64,000 nucleotides of DNA from Candidatus Bathyarchaeota archaeon (GTDB taxonomy: Archaea; Thermoproteota; Bathyarchaeia; Bathyarchaeales; Bathycorpusculaceae). Position numbers and translations under genes: made by a program. The stretch covers positions 2,720,001 to 2,784,000 of the forward strand of contig OY969706.1 in the NCBI GenBank assembly GCA_963702095.1, written 5' to 3'. The notes under the pieces were generated by a model that worked only from the letters and a program-made list of their open reading frames with translations, was not told the origin of the DNA and did not search any database. Below, piece after piece: positions 48,362 through 63,368 of this stretch (within the stretch, counting starts at the first letter, position 1; each line of letters begins with the position of its first letter).

Positions 48362-51300
48362 CTATTTGAAGTCGAAAAGGGTCGCCTGTTTGGGCTTCTT
48401 GTTATCAAACATCAAAATTAACTCTTCTTTGATGAGGTCCATGCGTTGAGTGTAGTAGTTGGGCAAACCATATTTGTCGACGAGTTGCTGTGCCGCCACC
48501 AGATACTTCTCTATGCCACCACGATAGACCGTTAAAGTAAGCTGCCCTCCGCAGAAGGGGCATTTGCCAACCAGCGGTAGTCGTCGGAATTTTTTGTTAC
48601 AGGACTTACATCTGAAACCCTGCGTTGAGAAAGCGCGCATGTTACCTGCGATGTCACGCATGAAATGGGTGTTTAGCACCTTTAAGGCTACGCGTCTGGC
48701 ATCTACGGCGTCTATTTTTTCGCCCAATCCCAATTGCATGTTGAGTTTGTCTATCATTGATTTGAATTCTTTGTAGCTGCTGTTGGCGTTGCCTAGGTTG
48801 ATGTTGGTGCATGGCGTGGTAAACTGGAAGCCTTCGAATTGCCCATCTGTGCCCAACCTGTGGCTGATGACATCCATGAATGCGCTGACGGCTCGGGCTT
48901 CGCCCTTTACTTGGGTCTGCTTGTAGAATTCGATGGGGTAGGTGATGCTGACGTCGAAGTCGTGGGCTTGCCTCTGCACCTCTTTTGTGTTGCAGAAGGG
49001 GATGAGCAGAATTGGAGCGTCCATGATGCCGCCGATTTGCGCAGGCAGAAAAATCCTTGAGAAGTTAAGCAGAGTATCTAACCCTAGCATGATGGCGTCT
49101 TCGTCGCCGTCGCAGTCCCGACGCTTAGCAGAGTGCCAAACAGGATGCGCATAGATTACGTTGCGGTCGGTGTAGCCGACGACTCTGCCCAGGATGCAGG
49201 CGCATGTGTGAGGTGCTAATCCAAAGATTAGGTGACCAACGAGGTCTTCGGCTTTTTTGACGTTGTAGTAAGGTGGCTGTTTGTAGAGGCGGACTAAAAG
49301 GTCGTCGATGAAAGAGGCGATTTTGATGAAATATTCGCCTGCCGTCCAGGGGATGACGACGTCTTGTATTTTTAGTTCACACACTTGGTTGGGGTCTGTT
49401 AGGGGCAAGCCGTGGGTGTCAGCTAAGTAGCCCATCTGATGCATCTTTTCAATTGAAACCCCGATTTCTGCAGGCGTGATATGGGTGAGGGGCGCGTTGG
49501 TGGCGTCAAAACGAATTGTGCCATCTTTGTAAACCGACAAGCCATGCTTCGCACGCAGAATCCCTTTCTCGACGATTTCAGGCGTCTTGTCGAGGTTTGT
49601 TAAGCCTTTGACGCCGCGTAGCATCTTAGGCGCTTGATAGCCAAGATTAGTGCTGGCGGATTCTACGAGTTCTTTAAAGTTGACGGGCTGGCGCTGGTAT
49701 TGAATGGCGTCGGCTTTGCATGTGCCGCAATAGTTTTCTTTGAGGGTTCTGCCGCATCGGGGACAGAACTTTTCTAGGATGGTTTCGCATCCGCAGGTGT
49801 CGCAGCGGATTTTTCTGGTGTAGGTTTTGCAGTTGGGGCATTTGCGTTTAACCATGTCGACGAAGACAGCGTTTTTCTTGGCTGCTTCCATCAGGTCGCG
49901 GTGGCTACCGCCGGCTAAGCTGACGGGAAAAAGAACATGGACGTTTGGTTTCATTTCTCGGTGTTTAGCTTTCTCGGGTCTGCCCATGCGTCCACCGACG
50001 TAGGTTGGGGCTTTGTCTTTGATTTGCACACCACAGAGCAGGCTCAGCAACACCAGAACCGAAGCCGCCTCCAAGGACTCAGAAAATCTGGATGTGCCGT
50101 AACCCAACGTAAAAGCTAACGCCGCGGCATCCTCGTCTGTCATCACGACTTTGCCGTCGATTACTCGGAAGGGCGCAAAAATCTTACGCAGAAACTTGAC
50201 TGCGCCATCATCGGTGGGTCCTGTGATTTTAGTGGCAAAGCCACCGTCACATTGGACCTCACAGCAGGCTAGCCATTTCCTTAAACATTCAACTTCTTCT
50301 ACAGTGGTTGACCCTGCCCAAAAGAGGGTGCAGTTTGGCGCCAACGGGAGACCTAAGGTTTGGCTCAGCATGGCTGCCTCTTTTGTGGTGGGCTTGTTTT
50401 CGAAGGGGTCGGCAATGAAGCCCTCGAGCCTCTCGGCGGATATTTTGGTGACTTGTGAAGCTTGCTGGGTGTTGGTGCCATATTTTTCTCTGATGACGTT
50501 TTGGAGGTCCTTAGACCACCACTCCTCCACGTACCCCGAGGGCGGCAGCGCCTTGTTGCTATAGAGGAAATCGCCGAAGTCGATTAGCATGTCGCCTAAG
50601 AAGAGGATTTTTTCGACCTTGCCCTTTACAGTAGATTCATAGTTCTCCAGCGACACCCGAACCACTGAACCATCTTTGAGTAAAACCACAGGTTTCTCGA
50701 TGCTGTCCACGGGCAATGTGACGCCACCTTTGCCTGGCAGTTCAAGGCGCATCTGGGTGCCTGCGGCTAGGAACTTCTCTACAACCAGCATGGTGGCGGG
50801 GTGGATGCCAACGGCTGAGAGCCCCGTGTTGCGTGATCTGCCATAACGGAGTCGGAAGCCGCCGCGGGTTGAGGGAAAAGCAAAGATGGGGCGACCCGCG
50901 ATGACGTCGTCCATGAAGCCGCCTGATTTTTTCTCAGACTTTTTCTTGAAGGTCTTTAGCCAATCCCACTCGTGAAAGCCTATCTTGTCCACGATGACGT
51001 AAACCTTCTGTGCACGGCCCACGATACCGTCGTTGACGACGCGGAGGGCTCCGCCGCGCACTCGGTTGGTTTCTACCCGCTGCAGGTTTCGGTAAGAGGA
51101 AACCTCTACTGGGTCTGATTCGGTGCCGGTGCATTCGACTGGAATCAAATTCAGTGCTTTGCGGAGTTCTTCGTCGGGAATGTGATATTGGAAGCGTCCA
51201 ACTGAGCGTTCATACAGCCTGAGTTCTTCTACAAAACGTGAAACCTCTTCCTCAGTCGGCTTGTAAACGTCTAAACCCAGTTCCCGACGCACATAGTCTC

Positions 51301-51799
51301 CCACGACCAATGTTAGGGCTTGGTCTGTGCCTCCTGCCGAGCGGATGGGGCCAGCAAAGTAGATTCCAAGGTAGCGGGTCTGGTCGGCGTTCTTTTTTAC
51401 TTTAACTTGGGCTATGCCCTGTATTGGCGCGGCGGTTAAGCCTTCAGTGAAAATCGCCAGCGCAGTTCGAATCGCCTGCTCAGCTAGCTTCTCTTCGGTG
51501 CTTTCTTCGGGGGTTTGGACGAATTTGCCCTGGGCGATTTCCTGTGCGACTTTGAAGGCGATTTCTTCACGGGGCATTTTGGCGCTAAGCTCTCGGATGC
51601 TCAGTGCGACGCCTTTTGGTCCAACCAAGCCCTCTACCAAGTCGGCGATGTCATGTGCAATAATGCATTCGGTTTTCAAGGCGGGGTCTAAACCCATGGA
51701 TCTGGCGTTGTCGCTTATGGCGTAGAGCCGTTTAAGCTCCTCCTCCATCGTTTCAACGTAGTTTCGGTATCCCTTGCTTATACCCATCTTAATGTTCAA
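48362..51799 (-). CDS. polC: DNA polymerase D large subunit DP2
   Basis: FAGPIRSAGGT, GFRLRYGRSRNTG, RMGRPEK, KRRDCDGDED, C-terminal PIP box KQATLFDF; no intein seen. Confidence 0.98.
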   Translation of the reverse strand: MNIKMGISKGYRNYVETMEEELKRLYAISDNARSMGLDPALKTECIIAHDIADLVEGLVGPKGVALSIRELSAKMPREEIAFKVAQEIAQGKFVQTPEESTEEKLAEQAIRTALAIFTEGLTAAPIQGIAQVKVKKNADQTRYLGIYFAGPIRSAGGTDQALTLVVGDYVRRELGLDVYKPTEEEVSRFVEELRLYERSVGRFQYHIPDEELRKALNLIPVECTGTESDPVEVSSYRNLQRVETNRVRGGALRVVNDGIVGRAQKVYVIVDKIGFHEWDWLKTFKKKSEKKSGGFMDDVIAGRPIFAFPSTRGGFRLRYGRSRNTGLSAVGIHPATMLVVEKFLAAGTQMRLELPGKGGVTLPVDSIEKPVVLLKDGSVVRVSLENYESTVKGKVEKILFLGDMLIDFGDFLYSNKALPPSGYVEEWWSKDLQNVIREKYGTNTQQASQVTKISAERLEGFIADPFENKPTTKEAAMLSQTLGLPLAPNCTLFWAGSTTVEEVECLRKWLACCEVQCDGGFATKITGPTDDGAVKFLRKIFAPFRVIDGKVVMTDEDAAALAFTLGYGTSRFSESLEAASVLVLLSLLCGVQIKDKAPTYVGGRMGRPEKAKHREMKPNVHVLFPVSLAGGSHRDLMEAAKKNAVFVDMVKRKCPNCKTYTRKIRCDTCGCETILEKFCPRCGRTLKENYCGTCKADAIQYQRQPVNFKELVESASTNLGYQAPKMLRGVKGLTNLDKTPEIVEKGILRAKHGLSVYKDGTIRFDATNAPLTHITPAEIGVSIEKMHQMGYLADTHGLPLTDPNQVCELKIQDVVIPWTAGEYFIKIASFIDDLLVRLYKQPPYYNVKKAEDLVGHLIFGLAPHTCACILGRVVGYTDRNVIYAHPVWHSAKRRDCDGDEDAIMLGLDTLLNFSRIFLPAQIGGIMDAPILLIPFCNTKEVQRQAHDFDVSITYPIEFYKQTQVKGEARAVSAFMDVISHRLGTDGQFEGFQFTTPCTNINLGNANSSYKEFKSMIDKLNMQLGLGEKIDAVDARRVALKVLNTHFMRDIAGNMRAFSTQGFRCKSCNKKFRRLPLVGKCPFCGGQLTLTVYRGGIEKYLVAAQQLVDKYGLPNYYTQRMDLIKEELILMFDNKKPKQATLFDFK

Positions 51800-51880
51800 A
51801 GCGCCAATTCACATGCAGAGTATACGTTAATGGGTATTTTGGGCTTTCTAAAAAACAGAGAAAAAGTGCATGAAAGAAAG

Positions 51881-52636
51881 CTATGCTCTTGGATGTTTGA
51901 TGGCTTGGATTATCTGTGATATGCGTTCGTTGGCTTCGCTGGTTTCTGTGAGGTTACCTGTGACGATTATGTCTGCGCCTGCGTTGGCTGCGGCTAGCGC
52001 GGCTTCTTTGGTTCGGATGCCTCCGCCGACGATGAGGGGAACATCGATTGTCCTTCGCACTTCACGGATTAACTCGGGAGGCACCGGAGTTACTACACCT
52101 GAGCCGCCTTCAAGGTAGATGAAGCGCATGCCCAAGTATTGACCTGCCAGTGCGTGGTCGGCTGCAAGCGTGGGTTTGCTGTAGGGCACGGGGAGGGCTT
52201 TGCCGACTCTGCCTGCGGTGCCGCCGTCGCCTACGATTACGTAGCCCATGGGGATTGGTTCAACATGGAATTTTTTGATGTAGGGTGCGCCTAGGATTTG
52301 GGCGCCCATCAAAAAGTAGGGGTCGGTTGAGTTGAGCATGGACATAAACCAGATGGCGTCGGCGTAGCGGCTTATGCCGCTGACGTTGCCCGGAAAAAGA
52401 ATAGTCGGCGTGTCAACCGCGTCTTTTATGGCTTTAACAACATCGTCGAGTTGCTTTTGTGACGCAACAGTTGAGCCCCCGATCATGATGGCGGCTGTTC
52501 CGCTGTTCTTGGAGCTCTTAGCAACTCTCGCGGCGGCTTTGGGCGTTACCTTTTCTGGGTCGATGAGGGTCATGTGGATTGTGCCGTCAGCTTTTATTTT
52601 GTCTAGCAAGTACCGTTCAATGGACCCAACCATCAA
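51881..52636 (-). CDS. Geranylgeranylglyceryl phosphate synthase
   Basis: HMTLIDPEK, IMIGGS, YLEGGSG, VGGGIR, IVTG. Confidence 0.93.
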   Translation of the reverse strand: MMVGSIERYLLDKIKADGTIHMTLIDPEKVTPKAAARVAKSSKNSGTAAIMIGGSTVASQKQLDDVVKAIKDAVDTPTILFPGNVSGISRYADAIWFMSMLNSTDPYFLMGAQILGAPYIKKFHVEPIPMGYVIVGDGGTAGRVGKALPVPYSKPTLAADHALAGQYLGMRFIYLEGGSGVVTPVPPELIREVRRTIDVPLIVGGGIRTKEAALAAANAGADIIVTGNLTETSEANERISQIIQAIKHPRA

Positions 52637-52649
52637 GCAATCCTTCGGG

Positions 52650-52919
52650 TTACTCTTCTTTTGCCTTAGTTATTGGTGTACGCTTTATGTTAGCGTAAAC
52701 CCTATCGGTTAACATGCAGTAAACGTCAACTTCGCCCTGAGCAGACTTGACGGTGAATTCTTCTTTGAGCCCACAGCTGCTGCATTGAGCAACTGCTCTG
52801 CCGCCTTCTTCGCGGTAGATTTCTACTCGGACGGTTTCTTTTCCGCATCTAGGGCAAGAGAAGAACTTGGGTAGTCTTTTCTTTGGAATGTGAACAACTT
52901 TTTTCCTTCTTCGCCCCAT
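52650..52919 (-). CDS. elf1: Transcription elongation factor Elf1
   Basis: MGRRRKK..LPK.F.CP.C...C..C..VDVY. Confidence 0.9.
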   Translation of the reverse strand: MGRRRKKVVHIPKKRLPKFFSCPRCGKETVRVEIYREEGGRAVAQCSSCGLKEEFTVKSAQGEVDVYCMLTDRVYANIKRTPITKAKEE

Positions 52920-53019
52920 ACAAAGTTCCTTCTACATGATTTGGTAGTGTTCATTAATATTTATCCTTGTCCTTAAATACTTGCCTACTAACCATTGCTA
53001 TGAAGCTGCGTGATAAGCC

Positions 53020-53862
53020 TTGAAGTTAACGCCTTCTGCACTGGAAATAGATTTCTCAGAAGCCCAAACCCGCATAGTCCGATTCATAAAAGAATATCTC
53101 GCCAACGCAGGCGCCAAAGGCGTCGTTTTGGGCTTATCTGGTGGAGTAGACAGCGCAACCGTAGCGGCGCTTTGTAGCCAAGCCGTAGGAGGAGAAAACG
53201 TCCTCGCCCTCTTGCTGCCCGAGAAAGAGACGTTCAAACAAAAGGACATCGACGACGCCAACGCCGTAGCAGAGCTGTTCCATCTCCAAACACAGTTCTG
53301 TGACATGACAGAGGTCCTCGACGCCTTCTACTTGGGCATACCAATCTTCAAAGCAGCCGACCGCATCTGCAAAGGAAACATCAAAGCCAGAACCCGAATG
53401 ATCTATCTCTACTACTACGCAAACAACCAAAACCGAATCGTCGCCGGCACCTCAGACAAATCCGAAACCATGATGGGTTACTTCACCAAGTGGGGCGACG
53501 CAGCAGCCGACATCTCACCCATAATCGACCTCTACAAAACCCAAGTGCGCAAACTAGCCATGCACCTTGGAATCCCCCAAGAACTCGCCATGAAACCCTC
53601 CACACCTGCCCTGTGGCCAAACCAGCTAGCTGAGTCTGAGTTGGAGATCAAATATGAAACCCTCGACCTGATTCTCTATGGGTTGGAACGGTTTATGAGG
53701 CCAGTGGAAATCAGCGAGCAGTTAGGCATCGAAGCCGCCGTCGTGGAGAGGGTGCAGAACCGCTGGTTAGCAACTGAGCATAAGCGGAGGCTGCCTCTTG
53801 CGCCTAAACTTGGCTTTAGAACTGCAACAACCGATTTTAGGCTCCCAAGACACACTTACTGA
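53020..53862 (+). CDS. nadE: NAD+ synthetase (synthetase domain only)
   Basis: GLSGGVDS, NIKARTRM, GYFTKWGD, LYKTQV. Confidence 0.95.
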   Translation: MKLTPSALEIDFSEAQTRIVRFIKEYLANAGAKGVVLGLSGGVDSATVAALCSQAVGGENVLALLLPEKETFKQKDIDDANAVAELFHLQTQFCDMTEVLDAFYLGIPIFKAADRICKGNIKARTRMIYLYYYANNQNRIVAGTSDKSETMMGYFTKWGDAAADISPIIDLYKTQVRKLAMHLGIPQELAMKPSTPALWPNQLAESELEIKYETLDLILYGLERFMRPVEISEQLGIEAAVVERVQNRWLATEHKRRLPLAPKLGFRTATTDFRLPRHTY

Positions 53863-53873
53863 AAGGGATCACA

Positions 53874-54707
53874 GTGAAGGATAAGGTTAAGCTTGCACTT
53901 TGCCAAATAAGCAGCAGACGAGAAAACAAGGAGGCTAACCTCCAAAAAATCGAGGAGTTAACCGCCAAAGCTAAAGGGGAGGGAGCGGAATTGGCGATTT
54001 TCCCAGAGATGTCACTGACAGGCTATGTTCTCCATGACCAAGTGTACGGTTGTGCCGAGACCGTGCCTGGACCATCAACCCAGAAAGTGGTTGAGATTGC
54101 CCAGAAAAACGGTATGCACATCATTTTTGGGATGCCTGAGCTTAGCGAAAAAACCCAAGCCACCATCTACAACACCGCCGTCATGGTGGGTCCCAAAGGC
54201 TACATCGGTAAATACCGCAAAATGTACCTTCCCACGCACAGCGTGTTTGAGGAGAAGCGTTATTTCCGTCCTGGATACGAGCCAGGGGCGTTCCAAACCG
54301 ACATCGGTAACATCGGGTTAACTATCTGCTATGATGTTTTCTTTCCAGAAGTGTTTAGGCTTTGCCGATTGAAGGGTGCGCAACTCATGGTTTGTATTTC
54401 TGCTTCCCCAGCGGTGCGTCGAAGCTACTTTGAGTTGCTAACTGCCGCGCGTGCATTGGAGAACACGGCATATTTAGCCTACGTTAACCTCGCAGGCGTG
54501 CAGGATGGCTTGCAATTTTGGGGCGGAAGCCGCCTCGTCAGCCCCACAGGCGACGTTTTAGCTAAAGCAAAGTATGATTTGGAGGATTTTGTGGTCGCCG
54601 AGGTCGATTTGGCTGATTTGCGTACCGCCGAAACCTTTGTTCCGACGATAAGGGATCTTCGCCCAGAGCTTTATGATAAGCTTAAGCGGTATTCCGAGCA
54701 AATTTAA
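53874..54707 (+). CDS. Carbon-nitrogen hydrolase (nitrilase superfamily)
   Basis: FPEMSLTGY, YRK..LP, ICYD.FFPE: E-K-C triad. Confidence 0.92.
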   Translation: MKDKVKLALCQISSRRENKEANLQKIEELTAKAKGEGAELAIFPEMSLTGYVLHDQVYGCAETVPGPSTQKVVEIAQKNGMHIIFGMPELSEKTQATIYNTAVMVGPKGYIGKYRKMYLPTHSVFEEKRYFRPGYEPGAFQTDIGNIGLTICYDVFFPEVFRLCRLKGAQLMVCISASPAVRRSYFELLTAARALENTAYLAYVNLAGVQDGLQFWGGSRLVSPTGDVLAKAKYDLEDFVVAEVDLADLRTAETFVPTIRDLRPELYDKLKRYSEQI

Positions 54708-54711
54708 GCAG

Positions 54712-54836
54712 GTCACATATAAGCGAAATGCTCGGGAGAACACATCACAGATGCATCACAAAGCTGTGATATCAAGTGATTTCGGGCTAAATCACAGCTT
54801 TTTGGTGATGTCACGGTGATTTTTTGGTTAAATCAC
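54712..54836. promoter_or_regulatory. Array of ATCAC/GTGAT motifs (8) plus 2 GTCAC
   Basis: Starts at 54744, 54755, 54766, 54776, 54791, 54805, 54816, 54832; GTCAC at 54712 and 54810. Confidence 0.8.
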
Positions 54837-55186
54837 GTTGAGATTAGCAGGAGGATAATGTATTTTGGTGTTAGATTTGGGCTGAAAAAGTGTGTGTTAT
54901 TTCGCTGGGAATGTAAAAAAATGGGCGGGAGAGGGTTTGAGGTGTTTGCAGAAGTGCGTTTTTTGTGTAAAGTTGAGGCATGTGGATGGTTGAAATTACC
55001 GAGGAATTTAGCCTTTTTCATGTTAAATGGTCTAAAACTATCCTTAAATCGTCGGGCAAGGTATTAATCGGCATATTTTTGTGAATTAGGGCAAATTTAG
55101 CCGTTTTTTTTATCGATATAGCGGGTTTTGTGGGGGTGAAAGGATAAAAACAGGGGTTAGTATACAAAACTGTATCCATTTGGACT

Positions 55187-55684
55187 ATGGAGGAAAACAG
55201 TGGTTTGAAGCTAAAAGACGGGGTAACAGCATGGTTAAATGGGGCACTAAATGACCCCATCGTACAAATACTGGCTAAAAACAGCCAATTAACAAAAACA
55301 CAGCTAGAAACGCTACTCATTGACGTTTTATCTGAAAATATATCGGGGAAACAGCTAAAATACGACGATAAAGCCGCATTAAGGCTAACAAAGGCTAAAA
55401 TAAGTCGCGGTAGCTTTAATAGGACTTTAAAACAGTCCCGCGAAAACGTCATTAAGTCCATCTACACAGTGCTACTTTTAGGGTATTTGGGAGTTTTTGA
55501 GACAACAACTCTCGACCCGTACCTCGAAATAGCCAATAAACTGCACGAGTACGTCGATGCACACCAGGACGTTCCTATCAAGGAAGAGGAACTAAAAGAC
55601 CATCGAAAAGTCATAGAAATCATCAGAAATGAGCTTGAAACGAGCCTAAAACGGCTTTCTAGCCCATCAGAAGCCCCCCTGTGA
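55187..55684 (+). CDS. Hypothetical HTH DNA-binding protein
   Basis: LTKTQLETL...ISRGSFNRTLKQSR resembles a sigma-r4/Tfx-like HTH; its stop TGA lies inside a GTGAT motif. Confidence 0.7.
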   Translation: MEENSGLKLKDGVTAWLNGALNDPIVQILAKNSQLTKTQLETLLIDVLSENISGKQLKYDDKAALRLTKAKISRGSFNRTLKQSRENVIKSIYTVLLLGYLGVFETTTLDPYLEIANKLHEYVDAHQDVPIKEEELKDHRKVIEIIRNELETSLKRLSSPSEAPL

Positions 55685-55989
55685 TGTCACAAATCACAGG
55701 TTTATCCATCTTTTTATGTATAAATTGAAGGAAAAAATAACCGTTCCTACAGGGCTATATTCAAGGGCTAATTTCCTAAACAGGCTCAAATTTCAATCTT
55801 TTCAACCTATGGATAGGCCATTAAGAGAGCCAACTATAAAGTTGTGATCTGTGATGTCATTCTTGCATGTGATCAGGTCACCGATAACCTTAAATTTCCA
55901 TGGGAATTAGTGTGATGTGTGATGCAACCGTTAAAATCACGGGGAATCACGGTTGAGTCACACATAAATCACGGGGGAAGAAATCACGG
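55681..55989. promoter_or_regulatory. Array of ATCAC/GTGAT motifs (11) plus 3 GTCAC, including 4 x AATCACGG
   Basis: GTGAT 55681, 55844, 55851, 55869, 55912, 55919; ATCAC 55693, 55936, 55946, 55968, 55983; GTCAC 55686, 55877, 55957. Confidence 0.85.
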
Positions 55990-56009
55990 TTGACCTCACA
56001 CCATTAATA

Positions 56010-56777
56010 TTGGCTGTTTTAGTAGCTGTTACAGCGGTAGCTGCCTATGAATACTACAAGCATATTCGAATGGCACACAAAGAATACGAGAAAGCCAAAG
56101 ATTTTCTAGAAGATATCGTGTTGAGTTTTGATCGAGAACTTAAACGTGAATCAAACAAGTTTGACACTATGGTATCAAAGGTAGAGGGAAGCCACAACAC
56201 AGCTGATGTCAGCTACAGAAAAGCTGAGCGATTAGAACTCAAAATCGAGCCAATGGAGGAGCAGCTTGGCGCCCTCACTCAATCATACCAGGCGATGTCA
56301 CAGACAGTCACAGAGGAACTAACAGAAAACACGCAAAACAACACAAGAGTCCTCTCAGGGCTCCAAGGCTTAGAAGCAAAACTCAAAGACATCGACGTGG
56401 CGCAGGAAACTCTCAAGAACAAAATCTCAGGCCTTGAAGAGCAAATCCAGAAGATAGCCACTGCCCCGCCGCCTCAACCAGAATTCAGAACAGAAGTTGT
56501 GTTGCCGCCTATACCCATCAAACGGGACAAAGCCCTAGCCGCCCTCACAGAAACCGAAATCCAAGTGCTTGAAATGCTCTCAAAAGAGGGCTCTAAGACT
56601 GCACCTGAAATAAAAGAGAGAGTACACCTAAGCCGGGAGCACACTGCACGGTTGATGAAGAAGCTCTATGAAAATGGGTATCTCGAGAGGGAGGCAGGCA
56701 AAATTCCCTTCCGCTACAGCATAAAGAAGGAAATGGAAGCACTGCTACAGAAAGTAGAGAATCCACCAGCAACATAG
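56010..56777 (+). CDS. Membrane-anchored coiled-coil protein with C-terminal winged helix (MarR-like)
   Basis: Hydrophobic N-terminus, long heptad region, Pro linker, LTETEIQVLEML..EG..TAPEI.....LSREHTARLMKKLYENGYLER. Confidence 0.8.
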   Translation: MAVLVAVTAVAAYEYYKHIRMAHKEYEKAKDFLEDIVLSFDRELKRESNKFDTMVSKVEGSHNTADVSYRKAERLELKIEPMEEQLGALTQSYQAMSQTVTEELTENTQNNTRVLSGLQGLEAKLKDIDVAQETLKNKISGLEEQIQKIATAPPPQPEFRTEVVLPPIPIKRDKALAALTETEIQVLEMLSKEGSKTAPEIKERVHLSREHTARLMKKLYENGYLEREAGKIPFRYSIKKEMEALLQKVENPPAT

Positions 56778-56821
56778 CGTGAACTAGGTAGGCGTGGTTT
56801 CCCACGTTAAAGGTACCCCTT

Positions 56822-56976
56822 CTACTTGTAAAATCAGCCTCAACCAGCCTACAGCCCGTTTCCGTTACAGAACACAAAACACAGCCGCCCACCAAGCCCA
56901 TAGGAAGAAGATGAGTAAGGGCAACACTCTCTTCTTCTAACACTAGAAAAACAAAAAAGCCCAAATTTTGATCTAC
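56822..56976 (+). repeat. Dispersed element, GAA-type palindrome copy
   Basis: 56869-56951 is an exact inverted match to 62319-62401. Confidence 0.92.
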
Positions 56977-57005
56977 ACGGGGGAGGGAGGCAGTAAAAGA
57001 AAAGC

Positions 57006-57977
57006 TTAGACAACCAAGTCCGCCATGTCGACGCTGCGCTCATAGATCTGCCTAAGAAAAGACACTGCCGCCAAGAATTCAGGCATCAAATCCACCGAGG
57101 ACTCCTTAGCTGCCGACTCAATCTTTGTAGAGGTATCAAGAATTTTTGTCCTTAGATTCCGCACGTTTTCTGCTAGCGAGATGTCTTTGGATAGGAATGA
57201 TTTGAAGGCTTGATCGTTGGCTTCACAGCAGGCAGATTGCAACTCGGTTAGGAGCTTGCGGATTTCCTCGGAGAGTTTAGCATCGTTTAGTTCCAGCGTG
57301 TTCTGAGCCAGTTGCACACATGCGTCGCCTATGCCTTCGATCAGACTTGCGGCTAAACGGTAGTCAAGGCATTCGATAGGTGTTATGGACAGTTTTTCGC
57401 TTAGCCTTGGATTCTGGATGATGGTTCGAAGTATCCTGACAAGTAAAAAGTAGAATTTGTTGTTTTCAACGTCGCGTTCGATTACGTTTTTAGCTAAGTC
57501 GGTGTCGACGGTGATGAATGAGTTGGCGGCGTCGCGTATCATGCGGGCTGCGCTTGCGTTGTTGCGCTGCAAGATTTTACTTGGGGAAGTAAAGGGCTGC
57601 TGCATCATGCATTGCAGAGACATCATGGAGGTGGTTTCTTCAACAATCATCAAGCCGGCCAATGAGTTAGCTGTGGATTTAACTAGGTTGCGAACGTTGG
57701 AGTCGATGCGGTCTTTGGCTTCTACCCTTATGATGTCGTATCCGAGCAGGTAGCGACCGATGATTTCGCGGCTCAAGTAGGGACCGATGCTTAGAACGGC
57801 GACTTTAGGCTGTACTTCATTGTCGAATTGGGGGTCGATAAAGAGTTTTCCGTCGCTTGTAACTTCTAAATTAACCTGGGTGCCTTTCTGGAGCCCATGC
57901 CCTTTAGCCCAGTCACGTGGCAAGCATACAAAGAAGGTGCCTGTTGGCGTCTGCTGGATTTTTCGTAGTTCACTCAT
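57006..57977 (-). CDS. PhoU-family phosphate uptake regulator with N-terminal AbrB domain
   Basis: RKIQ.T..G...V.LP..WA, YL.GYD.I, E.IGD, D..LA..V. Confidence 0.88.
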   Translation of the reverse strand: MSELRKIQQTPTGTFFVCLPRDWAKGHGLQKGTQVNLEVTSDGKLFIDPQFDNEVQPKVAVLSIGPYLSREIIGRYLLGYDIIRVEAKDRIDSNVRNLVKSTANSLAGLMIVEETTSMMSLQCMMQQPFTSPSKILQRNNASAARMIRDAANSFITVDTDLAKNVIERDVENNKFYFLLVRILRTIIQNPRLSEKLSITPIECLDYRLAASLIEGIGDACVQLAQNTLELNDAKLSEEIRKLLTELQSACCEANDQAFKSFLSKDISLAENVRNLRTKILDTSTKIESAAKESSVDLMPEFLAAVSFLRQIYERSVDMADLVV

Positions 57978-58201
57978 TGAATTGCCACCGAGATATGATT
58001 CATCTAAACATTTCAGGGCTTATATAAATTACTTCCAAACGGTTTTGTTTTAATGGCAGATAATACAATCAAGCCGCAACCGTAAAGAAAAAACATCACC
58101 GCACTTGCAAGCGCAAATGAAAAACAGTAAATAACTCAAAAGCAATAATGGCTAAACATCAAGCCAGCACCAACCATGGATAAAAGAGGGGTGGAAACGC
58201 G

Positions 58202-59800
58202 ATGGGTGAAGAGGAACAACTGCAAAGAGCAATCGAAGCAACAATCGCTGCAGGTTACCAGTTAAACAGCGAAGCCTTCGAGTTCCTCATCCAAAACTCT
58301 CAAACCAACGACCCCATGGCAGTAATGAATTTGGTGCTAGAGCGGATGGCTAATCTGGCGGATAAGCCGATGTTTATCGAGCGCAGTTTCTTAGAAACAG
58401 TGGTTCAGCAAGCAGCTATGGCTGTTGCAGAAGTTGTTTATGAGCAGCCTCCCGCGCAGGCGCCCACAGTTCAGCTGTACCCAAGCTACCCCGAGCCAAC
58501 GGCGAAGCCACAGATCAACGCTGCAGATTCGTTCTATCCCTATGCCAAAGACATCGCCTCTGACCTCAAAATCCTCGACGACTCCACCGGCAATCTAACC
58601 TCCAACGGCACCCTCAACGAATATATGGGGCTTTTTCAGGACCGATTTAAACGGGTCGAGAAAATATTGCGCCAAAGAATGGATGTTAAAGCAGCCACCC
58701 CTATAGTGGAAGCCCTCAAATCGCAGCCTAAAACCAAACTAAAAATCATCTGCATGCTAACTGAGAAGCGGGACTCCAAGAACAATATGATCCTCTCTGT
58801 GGAAGACCTTCATGGAAGCGCAACCGTGCTTATCCCTCAGAAGGCACCTGAAGAAGTAAAAAGGAAAGCGCTCATGCTATTGCCGGATACAGTGTTCTGT
58901 GCAGCCGTCATTAAAACCCGAACCAACCTCTTGATGGCAGAAGACATTATTCTTCCAGAAGTAGGCAAAAAAATACCCCAGCGGGCGCAGGAGCCAGTGT
59001 ACGCTGTACTTACCTCAGACACACATATTGGCAGCACAAAATTTACCAAAGAAGCCTTCCGCCGCTTTATCCTTTGGCTCCGAGGCAAATACGGCACGCC
59101 TGAGATGCGGGAAATTGCGGGCCGAGTCAAATACCTGCTTATCGCAGGCGATATAGTTGACGGCATCGGAATTTACCCCGGGCAACAGAACGAAATCACC
59201 ATACGCGATATCCACAAACAATACAATTTTGCCATTAAGTATCTCGAGAAAATTCCCAGTTATATCGAAATCGTGCTCTCGCCCGGCAACCATGACGCCG
59301 CACGCAAATCACTGCCTCAGCCAGCCATACCCGAAGGCTACCTGTCGGCAATCAAAGACAAACCCAATATCCACAGCGTCGGCAGCCCCTGCCTACTCAG
59401 CATCCATGGGGTAGAAGTCCTCATGTACCATGGCCGCAGCTTAGACGACATTATCTCCGTCATCCCAGGCATGGATCATGAGCACCCCGATAAATCAATG
59501 CGGCTTCTCTTGCAGAGCCGGCACTTGGCACCGGTATATGGTGGAAAAACAATGCTTTCCCCAGAGAACCGGGATTACCTAGTCATCGACAGAGTTCCCG
59601 ACATATTCCATGCGGGACACGTACACGTCAACGGCTTGTGCAACTATCGTGGTGTGTTGGTTGTTAATTCGGGCGGTTGGCAGGAACAGACGGATTACAT
59701 GGAAAAGTTGGGGTTGGTCCCCACTCCCGGAAAGGTGCCGGTTGTGAACCTACAAACTATGGAGACCACGATTTTAGATTTTATTAATCCGTTATTCTGA
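58202..59800 (+). CDS. polB: DNA polymerase D small subunit DP1
   Basis: SDTHIGS, AGDIVDG.G.YPGQ, PGNHD, YHG, HLAP, H.GHVH. Confidence 0.97.
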   Translation: MGEEEQLQRAIEATIAAGYQLNSEAFEFLIQNSQTNDPMAVMNLVLERMANLADKPMFIERSFLETVVQQAAMAVAEVVYEQPPAQAPTVQLYPSYPEPTAKPQINAADSFYPYAKDIASDLKILDDSTGNLTSNGTLNEYMGLFQDRFKRVEKILRQRMDVKAATPIVEALKSQPKTKLKIICMLTEKRDSKNNMILSVEDLHGSATVLIPQKAPEEVKRKALMLLPDTVFCAAVIKTRTNLLMAEDIILPEVGKKIPQRAQEPVYAVLTSDTHIGSTKFTKEAFRRFILWLRGKYGTPEMREIAGRVKYLLIAGDIVDGIGIYPGQQNEITIRDIHKQYNFAIKYLEKIPSYIEIVLSPGNHDAARKSLPQPAIPEGYLSAIKDKPNIHSVGSPCLLSIHGVEVLMYHGRSLDDIISVIPGMDHEHPDKSMRLLLQSRHLAPVYGGKTMLSPENRDYLVIDRVPDIFHAGHVHVNGLCNYRGVLVVNSGGWQEQTDYMEKLGLVPTPGKVPVVNLQTMETTILDFINPLF

Positions 59801-61024
59801 GTTTTTACGGGTGTTTTTTGGCTCGTACTGGAGTAGTGGGCTAAAGCGGACGTCGCCGCCAAAGACATCGCGAATTAAGCCTCGGCTGATTTCTAAACGT
59901 ATCTTCTTGGTTCTGCCGTACCTGCCCATGCTCACGACTTTGGCGTTGACCAAACCCATCGAATCCAACTCGTTAACCAAGGTGCCCAGTCGCCGCTGAG
60001 TTAGCAATCCAGCGCCCATTTCACCGCATAACTCATTGTAGACATCGTAGATTTCGCCTGTACTCGCGCTTGGCTTATTGAGGTGGTAGACGCTTAGCAG
60101 TACCAATTTTGAGTGCAGGGTTAAGTTTTTGAGGGCTTCTACGACACGGTTGTGCTCGATGTGTTTTTCAGCTTGTCGCACATGTTCCTCTGTGATGGTT
60201 TTTGCTCCTTGCCGCTCCGCAACTTCGCCTGCAACACGCAACAGGTCCAGGGCACGTCTGGCGTCCCCGTGTTCGGCGGCTGCAAGCGCAGAGGAAATGC
60301 TAAGAGCTGAATCAGAGAGAACGCCGTCTTGGAACGCCAGTTTGGAGCGTTCAAGCAATATGTTACGGAGTTCTTCTGCGTCGTAGGGTCTAAACACGAG
60401 TTCTTCTTCGCTAAGTGAACTAAAGACTCTGGGGTCGAGGAATTCTTTGAGGCGTAAGTCGTTGGATATGCCGATGATGGAGACTTTGCTTTTGTGGAGG
60501 GTTTCGTTGATGCGGGTGAGTTCGTACATGAAGGCGTCGCCTTTGTCCTTGATTAGGGCGTCGACTTCGTCTAGGACGATGATAAAAATTATTCTTGACT
60601 GGTCTAGCCCTGATCGGAAGCGGTCAAAAACTTCACCTACCGACAACCCAGTAAAGGGTATGGATAAGCCTACGCTTTGGCTTAAACTGGCAAAGACACG
60701 GTACTCCGAGCCAGTCATTCGGCAGTTGATATAGCAGAATTTGACTTGGGCACCGTACTCTTTAGCCTTTGATTCCAAGTGGCTCAAAACATATTTTGCG
60801 ACCGCGGTTTTTCCTGTGCCGGTTTTGCCGTAGATGAAAATGTTGGAGCATCGGGCGTCTCTTAGAACAGGCGCTACAGTTGAGCCTAAAAGACGAATCT
60901 GGTCTTCTCTATGTGGAAGCTTCTCTGGAATATAGTCATGTCGAAGAACCTCTCGGTCTTTGAACAGTTTTATACCGTGAACGAAGTTGTCGAATACGTC
61001 GTCGAGTACACTTGAATTTCCCAT
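59792..61024 (-). CDS. cdc6: Orc1/Cdc6 replication initiator
   Basis: YIPEKLPHRE, GKTGTGKT, VLDEVD, GDARRA.DLLR.A, GRYGRT; start placed at ATG 61024. Confidence 0.97.
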   Translation of the reverse strand: MGNSSVLDDVFDNFVHGIKLFKDREVLRHDYIPEKLPHREDQIRLLGSTVAPVLRDARCSNIFIYGKTGTGKTAVAKYVLSHLESKAKEYGAQVKFCYINCRMTGSEYRVFASLSQSVGLSIPFTGLSVGEVFDRFRSGLDQSRIIFIIVLDEVDALIKDKGDAFMYELTRINETLHKSKVSIIGISNDLRLKEFLDPRVFSSLSEEELVFRPYDAEELRNILLERSKLAFQDGVLSDSALSISSALAAAEHGDARRALDLLRVAGEVAERQGAKTITEEHVRQAEKHIEHNRVVEALKNLTLHSKLVLLSVYHLNKPSASTGEIYDVYNELCGEMGAGLLTQRRLGTLVNELDSMGLVNAKVVSMGRYGRTKKIRLEISRGLIRDVFGGDVRFSPLLQYEPKNTRKNSE

Positions 61025-61170
61025 TTGCCCACCCTCGCCTTTCAGAGGTACAACCGTTATTTCGTGTGGAACAGATAAAGGATACAGTACAAAAAACTGG
61101 TTCAAGAACACAATATTCCTAAAAAAGCTGAGGAAAAAGCTGTAGCAGCTAAGTAAACATAGTAGAGCAC

Positions 61171-61379
61171 ACACCCCAAGGTTTCGACTGGAAAAAAAGT
61201 CACTAAATTATAAATTCATATTAATAATATATAATAAAATATACTCTGAGTGATAAATAGGCTTTTTATATATTAATTATTATCATCAAAGAAATTAGAC
61301 ATTTCTTCTGCAAATATTTTTTCAGCCTCTCTAGACTTCTTTTCTGCCAAAAAATCGTCGACTGGAAACATAGGGGTGT
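61171..61379. other. Replication origin oriC: inverted ORBs flanking an AT-rich unwinding element
   Basis: ORB1 61171-61194 (minus TTTCCAGTCGAAACCTTGGGGTGT), AT-rich 61200-61330, ORB2 61357-61379 (GTCGACTGGAAACATAGGGGTGT); directly upstream of cdc6. Confidence 0.9.
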
Positions 61380-61473
61380 CTCTTCATCGATAAATCCATG
61401 GAAATCAATATAAAATCACTGCTTAACCGCTATCTTGGCTTATGGCCAAACTAACTTTAACTTGAACAATTTT

Positions 61474-61801
61474 GTCACCAAAGTTATCGGTAACTTCACA
61501 TTCACAAAACTGTGAACACATGTGAAATAGCATTAAATCTGCCGCTTTATCTAAGCGGTTTTTCGCTGAATTACCCTAATTCTGTTCTACTACAGAGAAT
61601 AAGGCACCCCTTGACTTCTACTGGAAAATCCAAACTAAGCCATACAGACTGGGCTTTTACGGTGTCGTTTCCTTGTGAAGCTGGTTATTCCATAAACAAT
61701 CCAGAAAAAAACTATTTAGCTATTATACGCCTAAATTAGCCTTTTTTTATTGCCATGTTTCACCATCACAGTTATAAGTTGTGAAGTGTAAAGATTGTGA
61801 A
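61474..61801. promoter_or_regulatory. Cluster of TTCAC/GTGAA motifs
   Basis: TTCAC 61495, 61501, 61759; GTGAA 61512, 61522, 61675, 61781, 61797; ATCAC 61765; GTCAC 61474. Confidence 0.6.
61605..61627 (-). promoter_or_regulatory. Third ORB-like element
   Basis: Minus strand TTTCCAGTAGAAGTCAAGGGGTG. Confidence 0.75.
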
Positions 61802-61820
61802 CAACCTATAGGTGCACTGA

Positions 61821-62249
61821 TTGCCGGCTCGTAAAATACGCGTAGAGCTCTTCGATAGCGATGGGAATCGATACACTATCGCTTTTGAGGGTCAAGTGAC
61901 CCGTGACAAAGCTCTGCGACTGCTTGACCTCGTCGAATTGCTAGGCGGTGCGCCAAGCGAAGGCCCAACAGTTAACAGCGGTCCAGCAATGCCTAACCGT
62001 GCACTGTCCCGTTTTGAGAAGGTGCAGTTGGTTATTCAGAAAAATTTTCCGTTAATCTGGTTTTCATCGAAGGAGGTCCAATCAGTCTATGAGCAGGAAC
62101 TCAAAGAACCCGTCAGTTTGAGTACAATCTCAACCTATCTCTCACGTATGGCCGGCAAAGGCTTGCTGCTTAGGACCGGTAGTTCAAACAGCCTCAAGTA
62201 CAAGACAGCGCCAAACATTCCACAGGCAATAAAGCAACACATAAAGTAA
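61821..62249 (+). CDS. Origin-adjacent winged-helix protein
   Basis: N-terminal beta-hairpin/helix domain, linker, FSSKEV...YE......VSLSTISTYLSRM..KGLL.R wHTH. Confidence 0.75.
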   Translation: MPARKIRVELFDSDGNRYTIAFEGQVTRDKALRLLDLVELLGGAPSEGPTVNSGPAMPNRALSRFEKVQLVIQKNFPLIWFSSKEVQSVYEQELKEPVSLSTISTYLSRMAGKGLLLRTGSSNSLKYKTAPNIPQAIKQHIK

Positions 62250-62317
62250 CTTTATAACTGCTTCCCAAGCGATTCACAGAAAAGCTGGTATTGTGAACTG
62301 TAGCATTTTCGTTTTCT

Positions 62318-62455
62318 TTTTTTCTAGTGTTAGAAGAAGAGAGTGTTGCCCTTACTCATCTTCTTCCTATGGGCTTGGTGGGCGGCTGTGTTTTGTGTTC
62401 TACACTAGAAAGGGGTTGCTGGCTGGTTGAGGAGCAAACCACAAGCAGAACCAAA
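62318..62455 (-). repeat. Dispersed element, GAA-type palindrome copy
   Basis: Minus strand CTGCTTGTGGTTTG head; 83 bp identical to 56869-56951. Confidence 0.92.
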
Positions 62456-62531
62456 AAACCTCTCAATTATTATACCGACAGGTTACTAAAGGGTTAAATC
62501 TGCTGTCACGCATTCAAATCGGGGAACGCAT

Positions 62532-63155
62532 ATGTCCACCATAACCGACAAAATCGCAAACGCACTCTACCAATCAGGCTGCCTCCACTTCGGCAGCTTC
62601 AGAATAAAATCCGGAGCCACCAGCCCCTACTACATCGACTTAGCCCGCGTCCTCTCCGCGCCCCAGCAACTCGACGTCATAGCTGAGGTCGCCGCGGAAA
62701 AAATAAAGCAAATCGACGCTTCCGAACACATCGACAAACTTGCCTCTATCGAACTCAAAGGCGCCTTAATCGTGCCCAGCATCGCCGTCAAACTCAACAT
62801 GCCCTGTGTAATTGTGCGCAAGGAATCGAAAGCCTACGGTGTCACGGGCAGAACCGCGGGGGCAGACGTCGCTAAAGGCGACAACATATTGTTCTTCGAC
62901 GATGTGGTCAGCGAGGGGCTTTCAAAAATCGAAGGCGTCAAACCCCTCTTGGAATTGGGCGCCAATGTCAAGCATATGCTGGTGGTGGTTAACCGCGAGC
63001 ACGGCGGCAAAGAGAACCTTGAAAAACTCGGCTACCAAGTTCACGCCCTGGCAAAAATCACTGATATAGTGGCTTCGCTGTCTGTGAACGGGCACATTTC
63101 AAAAGAAGAGGCTGACAGCGTTTTAGAGTACGTGAAGCATTTTAGGGCGCAGTAA
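62532..63155 (+). CDS. pyrE: Orotate phosphoribosyltransferase
   Basis: FG.F..KSG..SPYYID, RKE.K.YG, DDVVSEG.S PRPP motif. Confidence 0.93.
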   Translation: MSTITDKIANALYQSGCLHFGSFRIKSGATSPYYIDLARVLSAPQQLDVIAEVAAEKIKQIDASEHIDKLASIELKGALIVPSIAVKLNMPCVIVRKESKAYGVTGRTAGADVAKGDNILFFDDVVSEGLSKIEGVKPLLELGANVKHMLVVVNREHGGKENLEKLGYQVHALAKITDIVASLSVNGHISKEEADSVLEYVKHFRAQ

Positions 63156-63368
63156 GGTAGAACTGGATAATTCGGTCGGCGACGGCAGTGGAGTAACCGC
63201 TATTTGTCAACGACTGTTTTAAAAGCTTTAACTCGTCTGCTTCCATAGTAACCGCTAATTCCTATGTATTAAACAAAATATAAAGTTAACCAGAATCATC
63301 CGCAGAGCAACTGACCCCTACGTTTATTGGCTGCCACCTCAAACAGTATACCAAAAAGAGTGCCCAAA

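Follow-up and report, generated by a model that had tools for sequence, protein, structure and literature searches.

A predicted membrane-anchored winged-helix protein and phased arrays of a short DNA word near a probable bathyarchaeal replication origin

We analysed a 64,000-nucleotide stretch of a Candidatus Bathyarchaeota archaeon genome (hereafter the window), which corresponds to positions 2,720,001–2,784,000 of a single 2,937,366-bp contig. Within it we identified two dense arrays of the DNA word RTCAC, which bracket one gene (gene A) and extend into the start of a second (gene B) that encodes a predicted membrane-anchored winged-helix protein. From comparative sequence evidence we infer that the B protein would bind these arrays, would repress its own promoter and would attach DNA close to the origin to the membrane, an attachment with a function; we regard this reading as evenly balanced between right and wrong. 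Public annotation describes B as a “MarR family transcriptional regulator” and A as a “hypothetical protein”, and no description of the module was found in the literature searched, a search whose reach excluded most subscription-journal papers. The window was compared with 20 loci of the same genus, 9 order-level loci, 60 distant loci from other orders of Bathyarchaeia, 12 loci from other classes and 54 full-length loci of Nitrosopumilaceae. The principal features, in window coordinates, are as follows.

Upstream array (array U): 54712–54836, sites in both orientations; eight ATCAC/GTGAT and two GTCAC.

Gene A: 55205–55684, plus strand; a 159-residue all-alpha protein of no known family.

Palindrome with one more site, TGTGATGTCACAAATCACA: 55680–55698, overlapping the stop codon of gene A.

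Downstream array (array D): 55843–55989; nine ATCAC/GTGAT and two GTCAC, embedding the putative promoter of gene B.

Gene B: 55986–56777, plus strand; a transmembrane (TM) helix, a long helix, a Pro-rich linker and a C-terminal winged helix.

A first-pass annotation of this DNA had drawn attention to 19 ATCAC/GTGAT and five GTCAC motifs in two patches, to four copies of AATCACGG and to spacings of 10–11 bp, and all of these counts were reproduced. Between positions 54700 and 56010 we found nine ATCAC, ten GTGAT, five GTCAC and no GTGAC. The plus strand of the window carries four copies of AATCACGG, all in the second patch (55935, 55945, 55967 and 55982), and the sites at 54744/55/66/76 and 55936/46/57/68 follow one another in steps of 10–11 bp. 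The window holds 98 ATCAC/GTGAT sites, or 0.46 per 300 bp, against 9 and 8 per 300 bp in the two patches and 3 in the next densest stretch. The proposed enrichment also held on the scale of the genome, which contains 3893 ATCAC/GTGAT sites in 2,937,366 bp (1.33 per kb): the patches are the two densest 150-bp windows in the entire 2.94 Mb (9 and 8 sites; next 4), and the locus ranks first among 1300-bp windows (19 sites; next 9). Both genome copies of TGTGATNTGTGAT and the only copy of ATCAC-N6-GTGAT are located here, as are two of the five copies of GTGAYRTCAC, and a BLAST search of the genome did not find a second copy of either patch. The three outside copies of GTGAYRTCAC are isolated single sites, one in a coding region and two in repeated sequence. 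We considered a regulon of GTGAYRTCAC sites and rejected it because these other copies are single and do not form arrays. Separately, genome positions 573117 and 2907470 mark two copies of a repeat of approximately 45 nucleotides (TTCGGSGGAACATRCCCT..GTGATGTCACCCGCATACC), each of which contains the palindrome GTGATGTCAC.

Alignment of the 24 sites gave the consensus A-n-[A/G]-T-C-A-C-[A/G], with an A at position −2 in 19 of them and a purine 3′ of the core in 20. Array U begins 5 bp 3′ of the stop codon of a CN-hydrolase gene, lies 370–490 bp 5′ of gene A and contains both the ATCAC-N6-GTGAT palindrome (54755–54770) and a copy of GTGATGTCAC (54805–54814). Array D is composed of three parts. 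The 5′ part, TGTGATcTGTGATGTCA (also given as TGTGATnTGTGATGTCA), is positioned upstream of a TATA-like element, AACCTTAAAT (55886–55895); the middle part, TGTGATGTGTGAT, lies about 20 bp downstream of this element, at the expected transcription start; and the 3′ part, made up of the four AATCACGG units with GTCAC in 10–11 bp phase, runs into the ribosome-binding site and start of gene B, with the last ATCAC unit overlapping the B start at ACG 55986. Across the 20 genus loci the number of AATCACG units in array D ranges from two to six between species and changes in steps of 10–11 bp. Same-orientation spacings peak at 7, 10–11, 21–22 and 32 bp and more weakly at 42–43 bp, in the 20 genus loci and in 43 distant loci alike. 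In the same two sets of loci the opposite-orientation spacings peak at 5 bp, that is, at the palindrome GTGAY|RTCAC. As judged from these sequences, the spacings fit a cooperative geometry in which the sites would lie on one face of the DNA. The patches have 38–39% GC and no AT-rich DNA-unwinding element.

The description of B as a membrane protein with a long helix and a winged helix, offered at first from its translation, is supported by hydropathy, by an AF2 structural model and by Pfam. Counted from ACG 55986, residues 2–20 average 2.27 on the Kyte–Doolittle scale, the basic residues K, H, R and K come after them, and an N-terminal hydrophobic helix is seen in most of 22 aligned B orthologues. 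The AF2 model (mean predicted local confidence, pLDDT, 85.6) consists of a single helix spanning residues 5–157, a disordered Pro-rich linker (residues 158–178) and a winged helix (residues 181–255) with three helices and a beta wing modeled at pLDDT above 90. Pfam matches cover residues 179–238 of the 255-residue open reading frame (ORF), both for MarR (PF01047; 33.4 bits, cut-off 24.6) and for TrmB (PF01978; 31.1 bits, cut-off 25.6). B departs from the MarR family proper, soluble proteins of about 140–170 residues whose winged helix has dimerization helices on both its N- and C-terminal sides, in that a TM helix and a 150-residue single helix precede its winged helix; the best sequence match to a MarR protein in the PDB has E = 0.0039. 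The C-terminal sugar-binding effector domain of TrmB proteins is absent according to both Pfam and the model, the winged helix (181–255 of 263) forming the end of the protein. Since only 2–4 residues lie outside the membrane on the far side of the TM helix, B is also without a sensor domain. Among 22 sequences with 23–59% identity elsewhere, the recognition helix (REHTAR...K) does not vary; R217, E218, H219, R222 and K225 (263-residue numbering) are among the invariant residues, and this invariance fits an invariant DNA word. A profile search of the PDB with the alignment of B orthologues (alignment A2) returned mostly generic coiled coils (SMC, tropomyosin) and was uninformative. Prediction of a two-copy B homodimer with the same alignment gave scores of 0.17 and 0.19 against a mark of 0.42, which bears neither way on dimerization. 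B is encoded by a single-copy gene in this genome (G000).

The start of gene B most likely lies upstream of the first canonical start codon, TTG 56010. This codon is not conserved, being replaced by TTA or CTT in many congeners, and a start there would truncate the membrane helix. The reading frame is conserved back to ACG 55986, 3′ of a GGGGG/GGAGG box, and aligns with the TTG/GTG starts of more distant species. Gene callers differ on the length of B (219–333 residues), and the call in this genome's own annotation, 235 residues, drops the membrane helix. Most of the genus seems to use a non-canonical B start (ACG 55986 or ATC 55983), and one distant orthologue (L079) likewise has no canonical start codon 5′ of the membrane helix.

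Both genes flanked by the arrays, which the first-pass annotation had taken from ORFs, appear to be real genes, as they are conserved in all 20 genus loci. In each of these A lies directly upstream of B, with identities of 76–95% for A and 53–90% for B. Of the 24 other genomes in the genus, 23 contain B, as do 11 of 16 genomes from the order's other families. All 20 genus loci carry both arrays, whose offsets and orientations match from locus to locus (6–13 sites in array U and 7–11 in array D), and the architecture of array D is kept in all nine order-level loci. The palindrome over the A stop codon, TGTGAYGTCACAAATCACA, occurs in every one of the 20 genus loci, and palindromes of the GTGATATCAC type occupy the same position in order-level and class-level loci. 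Of 201 Bathyarchaeia genomes searched with a profile of the A protein, 169 have one copy of the gene; among the 126 high-quality genomes the figure is 115. At the level of the phylum, relatives of A are found in 104 of 251 genomes, other classes included. In the 12 loci from other classes, the order A, B, winged helix-turn-helix (wHTH) gene, Cdc6 and PolD recurs in several families, Nitrosopumilaceae among them. Between +200 and +500 relative to the A start, the 54 Nitrosopumilaceae loci contain 2.9–3.9 ATCAC/GTGAT sites per 100 bp, and there is a second peak of 1.3–2.2 per 100 bp between +800 and +1000, inside the B coding sequence; the flanking bins mostly contain about 0.2 per 100 bp or less. 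We also considered a mobile element or integrated plasmid and ruled this out, as A and B are single-copy and vertically conserved across two classes.

The relation between the arrays and the two proteins was examined in the 60 distant loci, which are stretches around gene A and were all scored uniformly. Gene B was called by a profile built from alignment A2 (E < 1e-25, winged helix covered), and the array score was the highest number of RTCAC/GTGAY sites in any 200 bp lying no more than 1.5 kb from A, six or more being taken as array level. Counted over related genomes that represent approximately 13 families with B and 7 without, B is present in 43 of the 60 loci, 41 of which reach array level (range 6–15), and is absent from 15, only one of which does so (L071, 6 sites; the others have 1–3). 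Two loci with weak B-like matches, L191 and L219, have 5 and 3 sites and were set aside from this contrast. Elsewhere in the same 60 loci the maximum is 2–7 sites per window. A whole-genome search with the B profile found no B in any of the eight B-less genomes tested and recovered two positive controls at 1e-66 and 1e-68. Gene A, a palindrome in its promoter (the A-box, described below) and mostly also the wHTH gene on the side of the origin persist in B-less lineages. Because A and this wHTH gene persist there without arrays, neither protein accounts for the arrays. By this comparison of sequences the arrays appear to follow B and not A. The earlier suggestion that one or both proteins bind the arrays is in this way narrowed, with co-occurrence pointing to B only. 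At L071 (genome G089), an XRE-type HTH and CBS-domain gene is found in place of B, and about seven GTGAT/ATCAC sites remain after A, including GTGATATCAC at the A stop codon; B may have been lost there recently, or another protein may also read the word.

In several lineages the places of the arrays are occupied by other coding sequences. Members of family f24 have nadE divergent from A, and in three genomes array U is located inside nadE, at codons ~62–117, with 7–8 sites; the protein alignment of f24 nadE shows no indel at the array. The nadE genes of five other lineages contain 0–3 sites each. In families f24 and f28, a 776-residue hypF lies antisense between A and B and carries array D in codons ~420–500. 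An array was present in 10 of the 13 hypF genes found between A and B, with 7–11 sites per 200 bp and 12–26 per gene; those without it belong to L087 (maximum 4) and to L191 and L219, the two weak B-like loci. The hypF gene of the present genome, which is located elsewhere (447,813–450,095), has five sites in total and at most two per 200 bp. In most f24 loci with hypF between A and B, the 450 bp 5′ of B contain only 2–4 sites. The word appears to be retained between A and B, and 5′ of A, whatever sequence occupies the place, and the presence of arrays in nadE and hypF coding sequence suggests that they are more than promoter operators. The first-pass annotation had named binding at only the two promoters as the sign of simple autoregulation. 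The arrays in coding sequences argue against binding restricted to those promoters. In this genus the embedding of the B promoter in array D suggests that autoregulation is at least part of what this array does.

The locus is also linked to a probable replication origin. The relevant features and gene order in the window are as follows.

Gene order up to gene B: nadE (53020–53862), CN-hydrolase (53874–54707), array U, gene A, array D, gene B.

Gene order 3′ of gene B: PhoU/AbrB-like gene (minus strand), PolD small subunit, cdc6 (minus strand), 646-bp AT-rich intergenic region, 142-residue wHTH gene.

Probable oriC: 61175–61820, AT-rich (34% GC) intergenic region adjoining cdc6, with TCGACTGGAAA repeats (repeat family D8).

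Dispersed 139-nucleotide repeat, left copy: 56820–56958, at the left breakpoint of a local inversion.

Dispersed 139-nucleotide repeat, right inverted copy: 62312–62450, at the right breakpoint of the inversion.

The maximum of the genome's cumulative GC skew falls at window position 58,444, which supports an origin in this neighbourhood. The distance from the arrays to oriC, given at first as 4.4–6.5 kb, amounts to 5.2–7.1 kb when measured to 61175–61820. The corresponding distance in relatives is about 1.5–2 kb, and gene B directly adjoins the wHTH gene at the edge of oriC. Among genus and order loci, 18 extend far enough to show the gene order, and in all of them it is A, B, wHTH (reversed), oriC-like region, cdc6, PolD small subunit and PhoU-like gene. 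Compared with these 18 relatives, a 5.5-kb PhoU-to-wHTH segment (PhoU-like, PolD small subunit, cdc6, oriC and wHTH) is inverted in the present genome only, and this local inversion accounts for the greater distance. The 139-nucleotide copies at the two breakpoints are 86% complementary and belong to a family of more than 100 copies genome-wide, similar to miniature inverted-repeat transposable elements or repetitive extragenic palindromes. In the closest relative a single copy of this repeat separates B from the wHTH gene; the two junctions of the present genome are hybrids of that copy. The repeat was rejected as an origin-specific feature because its family is dispersed. Among the distant loci, Cdc6 was found in the retrieved stretch of 39 of 60, and either Cdc6 or the PolD small subunit in 54 of 60. 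The proposed conservation and linkage to cdc6 were upheld across Bathyarchaeia and Nitrosopumilaceae, though no Cdc6 was found in the stretch retrieved for family f24. The 142-residue protein (61821–62249), which borders oriC on the side opposite cdc6, has a C-terminal BlaI/Penicillinase_R-like winged helix by a weak match (E = 0.0018), occurs at oriC in nearly every Bathyarchaeia and Nitrosopumilaceae locus examined, B-less ones included, and is a candidate origin-associated factor. Seven loci (L028, L032, L034, L036, L037, L039 and L040) have an insertion of 2.5–3 kb between B and this oriC-side wHTH gene.

Based on these observations, we propose the following mechanism. The two patches, which bracket gene A, would serve as B-binding sites with the consensus A-n-R-T-C-A-C-R. 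B would be anchored in the cytoplasmic membrane by its N-terminal TM helix, from which the helix of ~150 residues would extend into the cytoplasm and carry the winged helix on a flexible linker. The placement of the sites on one DNA face, together with the GTGAY|RTCAC palindromes, would allow several B molecules to load side by side. Since array D covers the TATA box of B as well as its transcription start and start codon, such loading would repress B, an autoregulation that we propose for this genus. Once occupied, the arrays would hold the origin-proximal chromosome at the membrane because B is predicted to be an integral membrane protein.

Several observations weigh against this mechanism. 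Each genome has one cluster of sites, beside the gene of the putative binder and over its promoter, as is typical of a transcription factor that controls its own gene. The origin anchors known so far use several dispersed sites, nine peaks over ~700 kb in the case of RicO (bioRxiv 10.64898/2026.03.06.710092). Two loci that bear B have weak arrays (L189, 4 sites; L194, 5 sites), and the B-less locus L071 keeps its sites beside the unrelated XRE-HTH/CBS gene. Kinship among the genomes makes the contrast of 41 of 43 against 1 of 15 overstate the number of independent events, and contig ends truncate 3 of the 15 B-less loci near A. Origin linkage is not universal, as f24 shows PolD and no Cdc6 match within the retrieved stretch, and close spacing is not strictly required, as the inversion in the present genome moved oriC some 5 kb away.

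The strongest alternative is plain transcriptional control, which we consider less likely than not. B would then be a membrane-tethered repressor, maybe one that a membrane signal or proteolysis frees or switches off, that autoregulates, controls A and perhaps also acts on nadE or hypF by roadblock or by looping between the two arrays, with attachment of DNA to the membrane incidental or nil. In favour of this reading, array D covers the B TATA box together with the transcription start and start codon in every one of the 20 genus loci and in order-level loci, the sites form one cluster per genome beside the regulator gene, and the way in which the arrays bracket the A promoter suits looping. 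Regulators of the TrmB family can repress or activate according to the position of the site relative to the promoter (PMC4706686). Against this alternative, 17–24 sites are far above the need of an operator, and in f24 the arrays are kept in nadE and hypF coding sequence 1.5 kb from the start of B, with mostly 2–4 sites in the 450 bp 5′ of B. B also has no sensor domain, and no regulon is visible, given that the other GTGAYRTCAC copies are single.

A more ambitious form of the proposed tether, which we consider rather doubtful, is an ancient, origin-proximal archaeal “membrane centromere”. According to this idea, B would load cooperatively on the 17–24 phased sites and fasten each new origin region to the membrane, and membrane growth or division, not a dedicated ParA motor, would part the sister origins. 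Separation by growth of the membrane was part of the replicon model of 1963.

The arrays might instead belong to the replication apparatus, either as iteron-like auxiliary origin elements or as a site for membrane sequestration or timing, with B acting as an origin regulator and not as a segregation tether. In line with this idea, the arrays lie next to oriC, cdc6 and the PolD small-subunit gene in two classes, the helically phased direct repeats resemble iterons, and an archaeal accessory origin-binding protein has a precedent in UBP and its ucm element (PMC12141716). We nevertheless consider it very unlikely, as 1.5–7 kb of genes separate the arrays from the AT-rich region that bears the origin recognition box (ORB) elements, and the intergenic region at 61175–61820 itself contains no RTCAC array. 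Moreover, whole lineages with the same oriC neighbourhood are without B and arrays, and the inversion in the present genome altered distance and orientation without loss of the module.

A further possibility is that the A protein, alone or with B, binds the arrays and that B has another role. Gene A most likely starts at TTG 55205 rather than at ATG 55187: in the genus alignment, GGAGG and the TTG are conserved (ATG in one species) and ATG 55187 is not. The A protein has 38 invariant residues in 16 aligned sequences, and its AF2 model consists of seven helices (pLDDT 75). It had been designated an HTH protein, a designation that found no family or fold match in Pfam, NCBIfam, Foldseek searches of the PDB or a PDB sequence profile. 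Pfam and NCBIfam gave nothing below E = 0.08 for the window protein; among 16 members of the A family no Pfam family recurred in more than four, and the best single match was to CHASE3 (E = 0.0013, one member). Foldseek comparison of the model with the PDB gave 84 matches at E ≤ 10 and none at E ≤ 0.001, the hits consisting of BAR-domain and myoglobin-like helical noise, and the PDB sequence profile (alignment A1) gave nothing below E = 0.75. A protein atlas provided one weak lead (score 0.79) to a Sigma70_r4-bearing cluster. The promoter of gene A has its own conserved element.

Gene A promoter region: 55139–55177, plus strand; TATA-like AAAGGATAAAAAC followed by the A-box GTATACAAAACTGTATCC (55160–55177).

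This region is nearly invariant in the 20 genus loci. The A-box is a palindrome, ATACA-N4-TGTAT, distinct from the RTCAC arrays, and its 18-mer is the sole copy in the genome. By eye, and uncounted, an A-box is seen ~25–60 bp 5′ of A in most of 20 distant loci, with or without B, and one is also present in a Nitrosopumilus locus. The A-box is probably the operator of gene A itself, with A autoregulated. Two blocks between array U and the A promoter, 54945–54975 (GTTTGCAAAAGTGCATTTTTTGTGTAAAGTT) and 55003–55025 (GAATTTAGCCTTTTTCATGTTAA), are kept in about 13 of the 20 genus loci and are without a conserved ORF. The small ORFs at 54816–55067 (plus strand) and 54833–55021 (minus strand) were rejected as genes because their frames are not conserved in the genus alignment; the former has no Pfam match. 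A role for A in binding would agree with its location between the arrays in every array-bearing locus, with its higher conservation relative to B within the genus and with the Sigma70_r4 lead. It is highly unlikely in our estimation, as A persists as a single-copy gene in the 14 of 15 B-less loci that have no arrays, has a different palindrome in its own promoter whether or not B is present, and belongs to no DNA-binding family or fold found by the searches above.

Action at the level of RNA, through leader hairpins and GUGAU/AUCAC pairing, or an accident of composition has a negligible probability: GTGAT and ATCAC are reverse complements and array D lies partly in the presumed B 5′ leader, but the sites are located on both strands of oppositely transcribed genes (nadE and hypF) and upstream of promoters, the number of units varies in 10–11 bp steps, there is no Rfam match at the gathering score in 50000–64000, and the uniqueness of the arrays genome-wide excludes chance. 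The same Rfam scan gave one chance-level match to RAGATH-8 (18.6 bits against 86.7) at 52786–53001, outside the features discussed here, and a tRNA scan run beside it found none.

To our knowledge, no DNA-to-membrane anchor has been described in archaea, and we know of no account of chromosome positioning and segregation that covers most archaea. The module is a concrete and testable candidate, in which a single-copy, integral-membrane predicted DNA binder is associated with a private phased array by oriC. It is common to Bathyarchaeia and to the ammonia-oxidising Nitrosopumilaceae, which are large and ecologically important lineages; the latter includes cultured species, and a single origin has been mapped in Nitrosopumilus (cited in PMC4010727). 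The maintenance of arrays in unrelated coding sequences provides comparative evidence for selection on the DNA word. If the membrane-centromere idea were true, the module would have been retained even though this meant altered codons in nadE, in hypF and in gene B. If autoregulation were the only function, B would still stand out among archaeal transcription factors for its membrane tether and its operator of 20 sites.

The proposed tether can be compared with several characterised systems. The Noc protein of Bacillus is ParB-like, brings DNA to the membrane by an N-terminal amphipathic helix and acts in nucleoid occlusion through many sites that are excluded from the terminus. A parS site is located inside the spo0J coding sequence. 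Like Noc, B is proposed to be a site-specific binder that would bring the chromosome to the membrane, with sites tolerated in coding sequence; Noc differs in having the ParB/CTPase fold and sites spread over the chromosome. The archaeal SegAB and pNOB8 AspA-ParB-ParA systems are soluble, need an adjacent ParA-type ATPase and have sites upstream of their own operon that have been proposed to be centromere-like. They share with the present locus arrayed repeats beside or over an operon promoter. The first-pass annotation had called the module ParA-independent. Its observation on the window stands, as no ParA-type ATPase (AAA_31, CbiA) passes the cut-off there, the nearest lying at genome positions 2.66–2.67 Mb, over 48 kb ahead of the window. 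The wider claim is unsupported, since the genome has six AAA_31 and nine CbiA matches above the cut-off elsewhere. No ParA gene was seen beside A and B in the 20, 60 and 12 related loci, which were annotated with the window proteins only and without a ParA-specific search.

The arrays also differ from iteron origins in that the patches have no AT-rich unwinding element, the AT-rich ORB-like region being 5–7 kb off in this genome and 1.5–2 kb off in relatives. UBP, which acts at the ucm element of Sulfolobus oriC1, is a beta-rich saddle protein that contacts MCM and binds both within the origin and at hundreds of further sites (PMC12141716). B resembles it as a lineage-specific accessory protein that is tied to an archaeal origin and predicted to bind DNA, and differs in being helical and membrane-anchored, with candidate sites outside the origin.

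The omega protein (ParB) of pSM19035 recognises parS regions in which 7–10 WATCACW heptads, in both orientations, follow one another without gaps; these regions overlap promoters and serve as both operator and centromere (PMC9499535). They share with the present arrays a short non-palindromic word with an ATCAC core, mixed orientation, 7-bp spacing and promoter overlap. Omega is a ribbon-helix-helix protein with an adjacent ParA ATPase, whereas B is a predicted membrane-anchored winged-helix protein with no adjacent ParA gene. Neither A nor B matched a ribbon-helix-helix family in Pfam or NCBIfam, and an N-terminal beta strand-helix-helix is absent from both models. That the core word is shared is most likely a coincidence.

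A closer match in fold is found in TrmBL1/Tgr, whose winged helix reads the Thermococcales glycolytic motif TATCAC-N5-GTGATA, with the position relative to the TATA box setting the outcome; TrmB-family proteins are soluble, have a C-terminal sugar-binding domain and control dozens of promoters that carry single palindromes (PMC4706686). B passes the Pfam cut-off for TrmB, and array U contains the related palindrome ATCAC-N6-GTGAT. Unlike the TrmB family, B has a TM anchor, a long stalk and no such effector domain, and is associated with one locus of phased multi-site arrays.

In overall design B is comparable to the Firmicute proteins RacA, RocS and RicO, which combine an HTH, a coiled coil and a membrane-targeting element to anchor origins to the membrane or pole and which are reported only from Firmicutes (bioRxiv 10.64898/2026.03.06.710092). 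B likewise has an HTH-type domain, a helical stalk and a membrane element, and the proposed effect, bridging of origin and membrane, is the same. The order of the parts is the opposite: the family has a MerR/MarR-like HTH at the N-terminus, a coiled coil in the middle and, at the C-terminus, an amphipathic helix (as in RicO and RocS) or a DivIVA contact, whereas in B an integral TM helix is N-terminal and the winged helix C-terminal. The nine sites of RicO are dispersed over ~700 kb, in contrast to a single cluster of 17–24 sites beside the B gene. The candidate sites of B are origin-proximal, unique in the genome and clustered rather than dispersed.

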